A stretch of DNA of 64,000 bases from contig CAXXIA010000002.1 in assembly GCA_963666985.2 (NCBI GenBank), positions 1,856,001 to 1,920,000 of the forward strand, given 5' to 3'. Positions 1 through 64,000 of this stretch are shown here, in pieces. The position numbers were made by a program. Each line of letters starts with the position of its first letter. Position 1 is the first letter of the stretch. Source of the stretch: Spirochaetia bacterium. GTDB taxonomy: Bacteria; Spirochaetota; Spirochaetia; DSM-2461.

Positions 1-3000
1 GAGGGTATAAATGCAAATGTTTTCCGATCAATTTCTCCTAATCTTAAATTGTCAAACCAGACGGTAAAAGTCTCATCTTCATTTTCTCGAAGACCAACTT
101 GGTATCCAACAAAGACATAACTGACGAAAATCCTGTGTCGGTCTATGGTCACCGCCCCACGATTATTTATCATTCTCACCTCATATCCGGATGGATAAAT
201 CACCTGTGGAATCTGAGAAGGGAAGGGCCGTTTGGACTTTGTGTAAACACTTCCGGGAGTCTGCATTTTAAGAGCTTCATGAGGTCGAACACTGTTGAAC
301 TGATTTCTCCAGACATCAAAATGCGCCTGATGTTCAGAGAGGTTACCCTGAATCTGTCCCTGTAATTCCCGTTTGATATCGGCATGCATTCTCTCATGCC
401 CCCCGTTCTCACAAGGTCGTCCCGGAGTGATGCGATCAAGTTCGATTCCCAAGGCCAACCACCAAACACTTAAGCGTGTGAGCCCCAGCAGTCCCTTCAT
501 GGAGGCAAAGGGAGGTCCGTTGTCGGACCTAATGACTCTGGGCATTCCATAGATGGAAAAGAGCTTCTCAAACTCGGTTCTAACTTCTTGTGTGTCAGCC
601 TTTTGGAGTGCTTTGATGGTAAAGATGTATTTGGAAAACTCATCCCGAACGGTCAAAGGTTCACATCGTTCTCCCTCGGGAGTATACCACCAGCCTTTGA
701 AATCCACGGTCCAGATGTCATTCGGCTGCTTGGCTTGAAGACGGCTCTGGATTCGCTGAGATTTATTCTGCCGGCGTTTCTTTCGGTGCACTACCAGACC
801 TGCTTTATCCAGGATGCGTTTCACGGTGGTCAGACTTGGACTCTCCTGGTGGGGATGTGTCTTCTGGTAGATATCGAGGATTTTCTTTGGCCCCCATTTG
901 GTGTGTCGTGATTTGATTCGGACGATGTCGCAGATGACATTCTCCGGTGTCTGGTGAGGGCAGATACGAGGTTTCCTGGTTCTTTCATTCAGGCCGGCGA
1001 GCCCTTCCTGAATAAACCGGTTTTTCCATTTAAGGCCTGTCGGCCGGGAGATCCCGTACTCAGCACAGAGGTCTTTCATACAGACATGGGGATCCATGGC
1101 CTTGAGGGCGAACTCGAATTTGACGTCCATAATATTGGTCTCCTTCCACGGCATAATCAGCACCTCGATAAGGGAAAGTACTGATCATTTTAGTCCTTGT
1201 CGTGTAAAGGATGTCCTGGTACTCTCGTGTAAACGATGTCGTGGACCCGTACCAGGTTCAATAGTGAAAGAAGTAGTAGCCACGGCCGCAATAACGAAAA
1301 TCCTTCAGAATCTTGAAAGAATTTATAAAGAAGTCAGCGAAGAATGGAAAGCACAAACAGGTGAAAAAATAAATAATTACTTAACTACGTTTCTTCAGAA
1401 GAACAGTGAAGTAAAAACAATTCTACATGGAAATCAACCCAAACCATTTTACGATGTATACTTCCCTCTGCGACTATCGTGTAAAGATAGAATAGTCCCA
1501 GATAAAAATGTTGAGAACATTTTCAAGATACGAAATACACTTATCGTTTCGGCTGAAGCTGGAAGTGGAAAAAGTATGCTTGCAAAGCATCTCTTCATAG
1601 ATGTAATTGAACGATGTTATGGAATTCCTTTTATTATTGAACTTCGATATTTAAACGAAACAGAAACAAAGTTAGAAGATTATATATTTGAACAGGTCTC
1701 AAAGCATGTAACAAGTTCAGAAAGAGTATATAAAAGATTGCTTGATAGGGGAGAATTCATTTTCTTTCTTGATGGATATGATGAAGTGAAAAAAGAGTTA
1801 AAGCAAAAAACAATAATGGGAATAAAAAACATAAATGAATTATACCCAAATATAAAATTGTTTATATCTTCACGACCATATACAAATATCGACATGCTTC
1901 AAAATTTTCAAACACTTGAAATTTGCCCTCTGGATGAAGAAGAAATAGTCGGATTTATAAAAAAACAAATTGACGATGAACAGCTAGCTTCTCAAATGTG
2001 CTCTTCAGTCAATGTTGCAAGAAAGTCGAAGATATCCAGCTTTTTACAAAATCCTTTATTATTAACTCTATATATACTGACATATCAAAACAGTTCAGAA
2101 ATCCCAGGTCAAGCATCTCTGTTTTATCGAAGAGTTATAAATGCTCTTTTTATCGAGCACGATAGCAAGACGAAATTTGGCTATCAAAGGGAAAGAGTCA
2201 GCAAAGTATCATATGATAGATTTGAAGACGTTATGAAGAAATTTTCAATCGTTTCTTTTTTTGACGACAAAATATCCTTTGACTATGAATATGCCCGTAA
2301 ATTAATAGGGCAAATAATCGACAATGATGAAAACTGTAATTTTACTTCTGAAGAATTGATAGAGGATCTTAAACTTGCTTTTTCTCTTTGGGTTGAAGAT
2401 TCGGGCTTTTATTCATTTGCTCATCGTTCAATCCAAGAGTATTTTGCTGCTTTATATATTCGCGATTTAGATGAAGAAAGCAAGCAATCTTTATATAGTC
2501 AGATAGTTGAAAAAATGGACAAATTCACAACCGACATGTACAATCTGTTGTCGATATTGAATGAAATTGATAATATTGCATATTTAAAATATTACCTTGT
2601 ACCAGTTATAAGTGAATATCATAGTTTTTTGACCGACAATCCTGATAATACCTCTTTTCTCTTTTCGATGTTTTCCTTTCATGACTATAAAAAGGAATCA
2701 GTAATTAGAACCTCAATTTCTCTGGCAGGATTCAAGTACTATTTTTTATTAGACAAAGAGAGATTTACTGGTCAAATATTTAAAATCATTGATGAAGAGG
2801 TTATAAAAAAGAATGGCTTTGGAGATTTAGTAAAAAACTCGCATAGAAAGAAACACTACTTGTCAGCTACGAATGTTAGTGAGAAAGGCAAAAAGTACTT
2901 GAATGAATTAGACACACTTTTTTCTGTTCGAAACGAGGTTGTAGCTTATTTGGATAATCTCAAGAAAACCTCAAATGAAGCAATTAGATTTGCTGAGAAG

Positions 3001-63000: not shown

Positions 63001-64000
63001 TTCACCGTTCCAGAAATCACTATTTATGTTATCACTAATATCACAAACTGCTTCAATGAAATCATCGATTGCTTCTTGATTTTCGGTAACATTCATCTTT
63101 ATAGATGAATATGCTTCAAGAAGAATATCTAATTTTAAATTTTGTTTACGAGCTTCTTCAAAACTTTTTGCTAAGGTTGTGTGTATTGAAGTATGAAAAG
63201 TAGTATAATTTAAACCTTTCACCAGGACAGAACCATACCGCTTTGCAACTAATGCACAAGCGGTAAATATCATACGGTGATAGAGATTTTTTATCCCAAA
63301 ATTAAAATGAAGGTTGTTATTAATTCTTGCTGTTATCGTATATATTTTATTTGTATCAATTTTATTTTCTGCGAATAGACTTAAGTAATATTCCTTATTT
63401 TTAAGCTCATCCTCATCTTGTAAGAAGACCCCATTCTTATAAATTTTTACTATGAACCCATTATATAAGATTTCAATATTATTTTTATATTTTATTTCAA
63501 CAATTTTAGTATTTTTAAGTAGCTCATCAATATGAATTTGTTTAAGATCGGTTGTTTCACTTTTCGCTTCTAGAATTATTGCTGGAAAGCTTTTTTCATT
63601 TGGTAAATACCAACCATCAGGTCTGTCGTTTATTCCAGAAAATCCTAATTGATTAAATGTCGTAATTTGGCCCACACCACTTATTGCGGACTCTGTGTCT
63701 TTAAAAGCTAGAATTTTTCCTGCTTTATCTCTTACTTTATCTTCAGTCATAATATTTCATCTCTCATTCTTAAGTCTTTTTCAGGCTCTAAATTTATGTT
63801 TTCTATAGCCAAAATAGAAACTTTTTAATTCATTATTTAATCTCATCCTATCATATTTTTTTAGGATTTTCATTATGTCTATTTTCTGTAAATTTCAATA
63901 TGCATAACATTATATATTATGTACTTTGTCGATAATTCGTAAAAGCTGTATAAAATTGCGCAAAAATGTCATATAAGGAGAATATCAAGTATAAATTATG

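Follow-up and report, generated by a model that had tools for sequence, protein, structure and literature searches.

In this study we describe an insertion sequence (IS) related to the IS481 family that lies at a fixed distance beyond the R' (3') side of attC-type repeats in a spirochaete cassette array, in one orientation throughout. We consider it very likely that this DDE element is active, and that its transposition machinery selects the R' flank of attC-type sites at a measured distance and in a single orientation. The window, a 64-kb stretch of contig C2 (contig positions 1,856,001 to 1,920,000), covers part of the array, and the features discussed below are collected in Table 1.

Table 1. 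IS copies, attC-type sites and parts of the element; positions count along the window unless a contig (C1 or C2) is named.
Feature	Position	Strand	Remarks
IS copy, subfamily B	1..1253	-	Begins at contig position 1855914, 87 nt ahead of the window; 22 nt past CGTT; duplication AGGT
attC-type repeat, long class (about 270 nt)	9006..9268	+	R'' side from 9006; R' arm motif 9245-9268, ending CGTT
23-nt spacer from CGTT to IS	9269..9291	+	Start of a repeated mini-cassette opening with TGATGACAGAATTAATTTAGGA
IS copy, subfamily A, 1343 bp	9292..10634	-	TGAGCGACC to CCCGTACC; without a clean duplication
attC-proximal IS end	9292..9340	+	8-nt tip TGAGCGAC, then two direct repeats of about 17 nt (CAGGACATCCTTTACA, TCAGGACATCGTTTACAC)
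Transposase gene	9354..10511	-	386 aa in one frame; sole gene of the 1343-bp element
Distal IS end	10580..10634	-	Inward: 10-nt tip GGTACGGGTT, then both repeats in reversed order
R' arm motif, attC before the next IS copy	21927..21950	+	0 mismatches
IS copy, subfamily B	21974..24548	-	23 nt past CGTT; duplication GACAA; interrupted by a nested IS3-type element
Nested IS3-family-like element, 1240 bp	22251..23490	-	272-aa OrfB-like frame; within IS copy 21974..24548
R' arm motif, attC before the third full IS copy	30083..30106	+	
IS copy, subfamily A	30129..31471	-	22 nt past CGTT; duplication AATT
Unoccupied attC arm and cassette start	55568..55630	+	TGATGAACTTTTCGTTTTGAAGTCGTTTTATC; paralogue representing the empty site of copy C2 1819843
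Array IS copies	C2 1798275, 1810887, 1819843, 1838818, 1855914, 1865292, 1877974, 1886129, 1933553	+	
IS fragment, 130 bp	C2 1927038	+	Inside the array
Off-array IS copy	C1 1274631	+	
Off-array IS copy	C2 729392-730735	-	
Off-array IS copy	C2 3077464-3078803	-	

Insertions at a fixed distance from attC-type repeats

The array can be traced by a 24-nt motif in the right arm of its repeats. A search allowing up to five mismatches gave 87 matches, a lower bound as more diverged repeats would escape it. All of them lie on the plus strand of C2 between positions 1779399 and 1933507, mostly 0.7 to 3 kb apart over 156 kb, and none was found elsewhere in the genome. The consensus of 83 repeats, ATTTAAC ... 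GTTAAAT, has the inversely related cores of attC (R'' RYYYAAC and R' GTTRRRY), and the bottom strand of the site at 21740-21962 forms a fold of -42 kcal/mol (z -4.1) whose two ends pair, interrupted by bulges. The repeats, whose interior is conserved, are about 210 nt long in 67 cases and about 270 nt in 16, longer than the usual attC of about 60-140 nt. The array is headed by a 277-aa IntI-like recombinase, encoded 1.3 kb ahead of the first repeat. It matches TIGR02249 with 126 + 97 bits, under the cut-off of 265, and its closest solved structure is VchIntIA, although about 43 residues are absent at the position of the IntI insertion, so that the extra domain specific to IntI is missing. The host arrays are thus atypical, being attC-like in cores and hairpin, yet not in the length of the sites or in the recombinase. 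By the crude measure of the longest frame, 38 of 71 cassettes read on the plus strand and 33 on the minus strand.

Using blastn with one copy against the whole genome, we found 13 copies of the 1343-bp element and one 130-bp fragment. Ten of these insertions, the fragment included, fall in the array, as had been proposed in the first-pass annotation of this DNA. The array makes up 3.2% of the genome, and the probability of finding at least 10 of 13 copies there by chance is 3e-13. The copies form two subfamilies. Those of subfamily A are 99.9-100% identical, and this near identity of six copies indicates recent activity. The three copies of subfamily B are 98.2-99.6% identical to one another and 85% identical to subfamily A. 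Two array copies are split, the one at C2 1810887 by another insertion and the one at 1877974 by the IS3-type element.

All ten array insertions stand behind one of the 87 arm motifs, at 22 nt in six cases, 23 nt in three and 24 nt in one, the last being the fragment, whose tip bears a 1-nt indel. They share one orientation, and the ten spacers between CGTT and the IS all differ, so that the distance of 22-24 nt past the attC core, the unrelated spacers and the common orientation described earlier hold in 10 of 10 cases. Adenine at position -4 (GGAACGTT) is found in 9 of the 10 occupied sites and 28 of the 77 unoccupied ones (p = 0.0016 by Fisher's test, without correction for the 54 positions). 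The three copies outside the array also follow look-alikes of the arm, with matches at 10, 8 and 9 positions of a 14-nt arm and spacers of 22-23 nt. In the genome background, a match at 8 or more positions has a probability of 0.036 per site, and of 4.7e-5 for all three copies. The copy at C2 729392 had been thought to have no clear core motif, but it shows an 8/14 match at a spacer of 22 nt. For the copy at C2 3077464 the suggested look-alike does exist (9/14, spacer 23 nt), although the motif that had been named for it was the wrong one.

Short target duplications accompany most of the insertions. They are present in seven of the nine full array copies (GTCT, AAAC, AAG, TGTT, AGGT, GACAA, AATT) and in all three off-array copies (ATTA, GCAT, GGGC), which bears out, at 3-5 bp, the direct repeats noticed before. 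For two occupied sites there are unoccupied paralogous cassettes that exactly reconstruct the empty site. One of these, behind the motif at 1911568, corresponds to copy 1819843 with its duplication AAG, and the copy at 1877974 has six unoccupied members of its cassette family. No target duplication was found at the copies C2 1865292 and 1933553. On the right flank of the latter is the cassette family of 1877974 from position +20 (84-91% identity), while the left flank belongs to another cassette. These mismatched flanks point to a further targeted insertion that was followed by recombination between IS copies. The two copies without duplications are probably both recombinants between IS copies, as shown by the exchanged flanks for the one and as inferred for the copy at 1865292 in the window (9292..10634).

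The element and its relatives

The transposase is a single-frame DDE enzyme with an rve core (Pfam rve 48 bits, rve_3 56 bits), an N-terminal helix-turn-helix (HTH_32 44 bits, also HTH_28) and a leucine zipper (LZ_Tnp_IS481, 28.4 bits against a cut-off of 22.2), which are the features that define the IS481 family. Its score on the IS481 model NF033577 of NCBIfam, 203.2 bits, is below the curated cut-off of 224 but is still the best of any family; the IS3 family gives 97 against a cut-off of 160. Residues D144 and E247 are invariant and D204 is nearly so. The predicted layout comprises helix-turn-helix domains, an RNase H-like core and a C-terminal beta domain of roughly 90 aa that extends past the IS481 model, and in structure comparison the fold resembles the solved TnsB, IstA, Mu and integrase complexes. 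No TnsC-, TnsD- or IstB-like partner is encoded in the element.

The two ends of the IS are not alike. The tips TGAGCGAC and GGTACGGG are dissimilar, and it is their sub-terminal 17-nt repeats that the ends have in common. Ahead of the first ACAT there are 11-13 nt at the attC-proximal end and 14 nt at the distal one, an asymmetry kept in all five elements that we examined (the present IS, the locus L085, the MFD03726 MAG, Leptospira and Turneriella). In the present IS and L085 the proximal end is found 3' of the gene, and in the other three 5' of it. The end facing attC, called the left one in the earlier description, lies behind the 3' end of the transposase gene, which is encoded on the minus strand. 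A consensus scan for an outward promoter from the IS toward the cassette gave 4 sites, with 1.9 expected in shuffled sequences, and none facing outward at the distal end, so that no such promoter stood out.

The same IS was not found in 40 related genomes, although four of them contain relatives. In three of these the relatives are 34-37% identical. The remaining one, G012, is from the same genus; its copies are dispersed, with 45-52% identity, and the five that had their flanks inspected (47% identity) are not linked to attC. In a FastTree phylogeny of 123 related transposases, one clade of 97 (support 99) takes in all the attC-linked ones. Its members, at 47-62% protein identity, come from Leptospira, Turneriella, Marispirochaeta and many metagenome contigs, and 71 of its 75 loci with enough flanking sequence (L016 counted) adjoin an attC-type ...ACGTT box. 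"attC" here means the core signature and neighbouring repeats, rather than a match to an attC covariance model, and the counts among relatives take in several copies per genome. More than 7,700 homologues carry only generic database names.

The layout of these loci is very regular. Of 113 loci with 170 nt or more of flank, 57 have a strict attC-arm signature that precedes the transposase start by 110-160 nt, and a further 17 loci have the same layout as judged by eye. Two 10-nt bins, which together cover 130 to 149 nt before the start, contain 58 signature matches on the correct strand and none on the wrong one. The distance that separates GTT from the first ACAT in the IS end is 27-30 nt in 53 of 57 distinct loci, with 28 nt in 29 of them, compared with 34-36 nt in the host IS and L085. 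Further attC-like repeats occur in the same locus in 15 of 27 spirochaete loci scored. A Turneriella insertion has an empty site and a target duplication, CTCC. Across hosts the common site is ACGTT-N4-G-N2-AT, and upstream of ACGTT the arm shows no conservation from one host to another.

Could the copies have spread without any targeting, either with duplicated or integrase-moved cassettes, or by random insertion and survival in harmless spots? Copies 1877974 and 1933553 do have paralogous right flanks, and in Turneriella the IS is found within one and the same type of cassette in two arrays (loci L022 and L056), a pattern that an integrase-moved IS cassette and two independent targeted insertions would explain equally well. 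Nevertheless, we regard this explanation as very improbable. Spread by cassette duplication, raised as an alternative in the first-pass annotation, is contradicted by the ten different spacers, by the insertions' own duplications and by the clean empty sites. As for random insertion, landing in a 3-nt window in one orientation has a probability of 8e-4 per insertion, and the ten-of-ten result has p <=6e-19 even if insertion is taken to be uniform within a harmless zone of 100 nt after attC. The same geometry is moreover repeated in dozens of unrelated hosts. As far as sequence data can tell, the spacers, duplications, empty sites, off-array look-alikes and relatives together support the original reading of independent, targeted insertion.

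How the site might be chosen

In the mechanism that we favour, targeted insertion at the R' flank, the site read includes the R' box with its arm, AACAGCGGAACGTT in the host genome and ACGTT-N4-G-N2-AT across hosts. The staggered cuts fall about 19-23 nt past the GTT core in the host genome and about 13-17 nt past it in most relatives, and leave the 3-5-bp duplication. The transposase itself would read double-stranded DNA, and transposition would presumably take the copy-out/paste-in route of IS3/IS481 elements. The asymmetry of the two IS ends, rather than the direction of the transposase gene, would set the orientation. Gene-relative orientation and spacing do vary between lineages, which is an argument against this mechanism, as is the near lack of differences between attC-clade and sister-clade transposases described below. 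Because the arm upstream of ACGTT is unconserved between hosts, the shared read-out may be the R' box alone. The R' box is something that any attC-binding protein would read as well.

The transposase might instead not read DNA itself but dock on a protein that already occupies the R' box, and this contact would impose the distance; the array's IntI-like recombinase is the most plausible candidate for such a protein. Ty elements and Tn7 choose their targets via target-bound proteins. Such docking would agree with the conservation of the R' box region ACGTT-N4-G-N2-AT as the only part of the site shared across hosts, and with the truncated-type IntI-like recombinase genes, one of which heads the host array while others lie 7-40 kb from IS relatives in four other genomes. 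It would also fit the finding that no extra domain sets attC-clade transposases apart from the sister clade. A comparison of 83 and 25 distinct proteins from the two clades gave only two discriminating positions (K168/R and F272/L) and equal median lengths, and we dismissed a clade-specific target-binding domain, as no added domain was visible. The off-array copies, however, are at look-alikes of the arm and not at a whole attC, although a recombinase could bind such sites too. We consider docking unlikely, while giving it more weight than any other alternative.

Another possibility is that the element recognises a folded attC, such as the base of a hairpin or cruciform on the lagging-strand template, and inserts at a set distance from the stem base. 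The stable fold of the bottom strand would suit this, and in relatives the insertion is only about 4-8 nt past the conserved paired extension of R'' and R'. Sister-clade elements, which are not attC-linked, are found in tandem or inverted short-repeat arrays, another context prone to non-B DNA. At the three off-array sites, though, we see sequence look-alikes of one arm and found no attC-length repeat, and from the solved TnsB, IstA, Mu and integrase complexes one would expect a transposase with this type of fold to capture a double-stranded target. Recognition of structure therefore seems rather improbable to us.

We also considered whether the attC arm mimics the 17-nt repeat of the IS end, since pseudo-end mimicry has been reported for IS911-type targeting. 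This idea was rejected: when the repeat of each element is compared with that element's own arm, the mean best match is 9.1 of 17 positions, compared with 8.7 for shuffled arms and 8.9 for the arms of other elements (53 elements).

As the crossover point of cassettes falls inside GTT, the IS becomes the first part (5' end) of the downstream cassette. Insertion spares the attC and, usually, genes. The IS could in principle travel along when a cassette is excised, and direct IS copies give rise to deletions via homologous recombination.

Comparison with known attC-seeking and site-specific elements

The attC-seekers established in the available literature text are IS1111-attC elements and group IIC-attC introns, and a DDE clade would make a third. 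The earlier statement that targeting of attC was not known for a DDE transposase of the IS481 type agrees with our search of openly accessible papers, in which we found none that describes a DDE or IS481-type element directed to attC. The clade looks like an apparently undescribed transposon group specialised on integron-type cassette arrays. Going further, we tentatively propose, with somewhat less than even confidence, that it is an old and large clade of single-gene IS481-like DDE transposons that lives on an integron-like cassette system as a specialised parasite or passenger, recognises the R' box of attC, inserts at a fixed offset from it, joins the next cassette and maybe travels with cassettes. 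The host arrays, with attC of 210-270 nt and a recombinase lacking the IntI-specific domain, may then be an unclassified type of integron.

Such elements would be of interest for several reasons. Their geometry, beside attC and inside the next cassette, is unlike that of both established groups, and they offer a natural and testable example of a transposon with one gene that chooses its target at a measured distance. Should that distance be set by the transposase alone, a single protein would make up a site-specific DDE insertion system. Insertion of this kind would explain the build-up of IS in large cassette arrays without loss of sites or genes, give rise to deletions in the arrays when IS copies recombine with one another, and open a possible route for insertion sequences to spread along with cassettes. 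It also highlights cassette arrays in spirochaetes in which neither the sites nor the recombinase fit the usual integron search rules.

IS1111-attC elements insert inside attC. They share with the present element their specialisation on attC and a fixed position and orientation, but have a DEDD (IS110-type) transposase, unlike the rve DDE enzyme found here, and the present element lands 13-23 nt outside attC, in the next cassette, with 3-5-bp duplications. The IS1111-attC group belongs to the IS110/IS1111 family; PMC11187229 describes an RNA guide (seekRNA) for such elements, and PMC3971601 cites Tetu & Holmes 2008 and Post & Hall 2009 for the group. Group IIC-attC introns (PMC3001079, PMC8876359) are retroelements, for which the attC stem-loop is the recognised feature, read as nucleic acid. 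Like the IS, they home to attC in one orientation and part it from neighbouring cassette pieces, while the element studied here is a protein-only DNA transposon.

Among site-specific DDE elements the likeness to Tn7 had been noted before. Tn7 (TnsABC+D) recognises a conserved site, attTn7, and inserts at a measured distance on one side of it, in one orientation and in a harmless place. The comparison holds for this logic of a recognised site and a measured distance, and the TnsB/IstA/MuA-like layout of the transposase and the several binding repeats in the ends are also alike. But the IS has one gene, with neither an AAA+ regulator nor a target selector, and makes a 3-5-bp duplication, so it does not belong with Tn7-like elements. 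IS1397 and ISKpn1 of the IS3 family target REP/BIME sequences, in the loop of the palindromic unit; PMC3971601 cites Tobes & Pareja 2006 on insertion sequences of this kind. They too are DDE elements, related to IS3/IS481 and specific for a repeated hairpin-forming element, whereas the target here is a fixed offset beside the attC-type site of a cassette array. With the IS481 family itself the element shares a single-frame transposase with helix-turn-helix, leucine zipper and rve core, and it differs from that family in its sub-cut-off score, the extra beta domain of about 90 aa, the two sub-terminal repeats at each end and its attC-specific target.

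Insertion next to attC-type sites

The window, contig positions C2 1856001-1920000, lies within a 156-kb cassette array that makes up 3.2% of the 4.86-Mb spirochaete genome. A blastn search of this genome with one copy of the 1343-bp IS481-like element (the IS) detected 13 copies together with a 130-bp fragment. The array holds nine of the copies plus the fragment, all on the plus strand, and three copies lie elsewhere. Copies of subfamily A are 99.9-100% identical to each other, and the three copies of subfamily B share 98.2-99.6% with one another and 85% with subfamily A.

The first-pass annotation had claimed that the IS lies 22-24 nt beyond the attC core in a single orientation, and had read this as the work of an attC-targeting transposase. 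Our analysis confirms the observation and supports the reading. Ten of the 87 right-arm motifs are followed by the IS, with a spacer between the CGTT that ends the arm and the IS start of 22 nt (six cases), 23 nt (three) or 24 nt (one, the fragment). The orientation relative to the repeat is the same in all ten, and the ten spacers, said to vary from copy to copy, are indeed all different. A single insertion has a chance of 8e-4 of hitting this 3-nt window in this orientation, and ten of ten would arise by chance with a probability of 6e-19 even if insertions were uniform within 100 nt past attC. It is very probable that the IS inserts site-specifically, in a fixed orientation and at a measured distance from the R' box of attC. 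An A at -4 (GGAACGTT) is favoured at occupied sites (9/10 vs 28/77, p = 0.0016, uncorrected).

Duplications of 3-5 bp flank seven of the nine full array copies and all three outside copies. The occupied site of copy 1819843 (copies are named by their C2 start) reads ...TTTGAAG, then the IS, then AAGTCGTTTTATC, and its empty-site paralogue in an unoccupied cassette reads ...TTTGAAGTCGTTTTATC. Six members of the cassette family that holds copy 1877974 are unoccupied. No duplication flanks copy 1933553; on its left lies one cassette type, and its right flank matches the family of copy 1877974 from +20 at 84-91% identity. These flanks indicate that it is a recombinant of two targeted copies, and it records a deletion between IS copies. 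Copy 1865292, which lacks a clean duplication and has a right flank without any paralogue in this genome, is probably a recombinant of the same kind.

All three off-array copies have a look-alike of the 14-nt arm AACAGCGGAACGTT at a spacer of 22-23 nt, with 10, 8 and 9 matches; C3, G5, C6, G8, C11 and G12 are common to the three. At 300,000 random genome positions at least 8 of 14 matches occurred with P = 0.036, or 4.7e-5 for all three copies, and this excess over background favours a site that would be read as sequence in at least one arm. The off-array C1 copy also carries a short tandem duplication of ~35 nt at its distal end. One IS copy contains a nested IS3-family-like element of 1240 bp, and a second is split by a 2.2-kb insertion.

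An atypical integron-like array

The right-arm motif (24 nt, up to 5 mismatches) has 87 matches, all co-oriented and all in the array, with none elsewhere in the genome. A left motif 152-224 nt upstream pairs with 83 of them, giving 67 repeats of ~210 nt and 16 of ~270 nt. Canonical inverse cores, ATTTAAC ... GTTAAAT, are present in the consensus, and conservation extends to +9 past GTT. For one repeat, the bottom strand gives a fold of -42 kcal/mol (z -4.1) in which both ends are paired. A tyrosine recombinase of 277 aa lies on the opposite strand, 1.3 kb ahead of the first repeat. Its nearest solved structure is VchIntIA (E 7e-46), it is without ~43 residues at the place of the IntI-specific insertion, and its match to TIGR02249, which comes in two pieces, scores under the cut-off. 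Because of these repeat lengths, cores and fold, and of the features of the recombinase, we class the array as integron-like but atypical and call its repeats attC-type sites. Four other spirochaete genomes have a two-piece TIGR02249 match of this kind 7-40 kb from IS relatives. A truncated recombinase with attC sites of 210-270 nt may represent a distinct integron-like class that would be invisible to the usual search rules.

The repeat interior (150-200 nt) is conserved among copies and contains two inner hairpins; a 68-aa frame crosses the interior of one repeat. The array holds at least nine copies of a ~238-nt mini-cassette, which usually have a long-class attC behind them.

Coordinates and loci of the features discussed (C2, contig CAXXIA010000002.1; G000, this genome; L-numbers, loci with transposase relatives or their recombinases; G012 and G045, other genomes)
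Feature	Position or locus	Remark
Array recombinase	G000:C2:1777145-1777939	Outside window; heads array
Right-arm motifs	C2 1779399-1933507
Mini-cassettes starting TGATGACAGAATTAATTTAGGAAATAG	Window 9269 onward; C2 1797754, 1801983, 1832177, 1833908, 1896550, 1905297, 1905797, 1914504
Long-class repeat with inner hairpins	Window 9006-9268	Also in other long-class repeats
68-aa frame	Window 9082-9288
Empty-site paralogue of copy 1819843	Window 55592 onward
Nested IS3-family-like element	Window 22251-23490
Split IS copy	C2 1810887-1814431
Tandem duplication, off-array copy	C1 1275945-1275998
Two-piece TIGR02249 recombinases	L201, L204, L202, G045:C1:3280492-3281280	Other genomes
G012 relative	L170, L175, L179, L182, L185, L188
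Sister-clade loci with tandem repeats	L045, L054, L063, L077, L049, L050, L032, L044, L051, L072, L074, L040, L042, L061	Verrucomicrobiota, Acidobacteriota, Myxococcota MAGs

The transposase and its relatives

The only coding content of the IS is a 386-aa frame on the minus strand, with the Pfam domains rve, rve_3, HTH_32, HTH_28 and LZ_Tnp_IS481. IS481 is its top NCBIfam family, at 203 bits and so under the curated 224. An AlphaFold model built from 43 homologues (mean pLDDT 87.7) predicts N-terminal helical DNA-binding domains, an RNase H-like core and a C-terminal beta domain. Full-length Foldseek matches include TnsB of type V-K CAST, IstA of IS21, foamy-virus integrase and MuA (E 1e-15 to 1e-9). 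Inward of a short tip, both IS ends carry a ~17-nt repeat twice, a layout reminiscent of the ends of IS21, Tn7 and Mu. The idea that the attC arm mimics an IS end was considered and rejected.

Across two collection scans, relatives of up to 62% identity turned up at 156 loci. The 7 Turneriella copies, which form two clusters, and the 5 copies of a Spirochaetota MAG are preceded at 15-17 nt by a conserved repeat that ends ...CGTT, and the same layout is seen in Leptospira species, Marispirochaeta and many single loci. Among the spirochaete loci, 27 were scored, and 15 of these have more attC-like repeats nearby. A strict regular expression for the arm matches 57 of 113 loci with sufficient upstream flank; its matches include 58 in two adjacent 10-nt bins, against 0 on the wrong strand in those bins. 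A further 17 loci missed by the expression show the layout when read by eye. Of 57 distinct loci, 53 have 27-30 nt between GTT and the first ACAT of the IS end, and the part of the site conserved across 52 hosts is ACGTT-N4-G-N2-AT (-5 to +9), with A at +8 in 52/52. Two unoccupied copies of one Turneriella cassette provide an empty site and a duplication, CTCC. The 3.2-kb contig of one attC-linked relative (L038) was assigned to a Nitrosarchaeum MAG, probably through misbinning and not because the host is archaeal.

A FastTree phylogeny of 123 transposases, whose rows are not independent as several come from one genome, splits into one clade of 97 rows (support 99) and another of 26. All attC-linked rows fall in the larger clade (71 of 75 with sufficient flank, including L016, counted because its flank shows attC adjacency). 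The 26 rows come from Verrucomicrobiota, Acidobacteriota, Myxococcota and others, and are often flanked by tandem 6-7-nt repeats (units such as GGTTATC, CCTGTAG and CCTTTAG), in some cases with the two sides inverted. The pattern suggests that the sister clade has a different, likewise non-random, target. A genome of the same genus, G012, has eight matches to a relative, which amount to about six full-length copies; identity is 45-52%, and 47% in the five copies with flanks read. These copies are dispersed in both orientations with no adjoining attC-type sites, and seven of the eight matches have one in-frame TAG.

Most relatives have the transposase 5' end toward attC. The 3' end faces attC in this IS, its closest relative L085 (62%), L038 and L143; the first three form a basal group (support 93). 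In the five elements with tips placed, 11-13 nt precede the first ACAT at the attC-proximal end and 14 nt at the distal end, whichever the gene direction. We infer that this lineage underwent an inversion of the segment between the IS ends, and that the asymmetry of the ends determines the insertion orientation. The GTT-to-ACAT offset is larger in this IS and L085 (34-36 nt vs 27-30 nt).

Recognition of the site and known systems

Direct reading of the site by the transposase would fit the off-array look-alikes. Alternatively, the transposase could be tethered to an attC-bound recombinase, or the folded site could be recognised. The attC clade differs from its sister by no added domain and only two discriminating residues, and therefore both alternatives stay live. 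Cassettes meet within GTT, which makes the IS formally the opening segment of the cassette downstream of it; it might plausibly ride with excised cassettes.

The literature consulted establishes two kinds of attC seeker, the IS1111-attC elements and the group IIC-attC introns, and both their enzyme and their insertion point differ from those of this IS. The closest logic is that of Tn7 at attTn7, although Tn7 needs helper proteins. The closest enzyme type is found in the REP-targeting IS3-family elements. The literature searched contained no DDE or IS481-type element that targets attC, and our results support enzyme class and geometry, common to a large clade, as what is new here for attC targeting.
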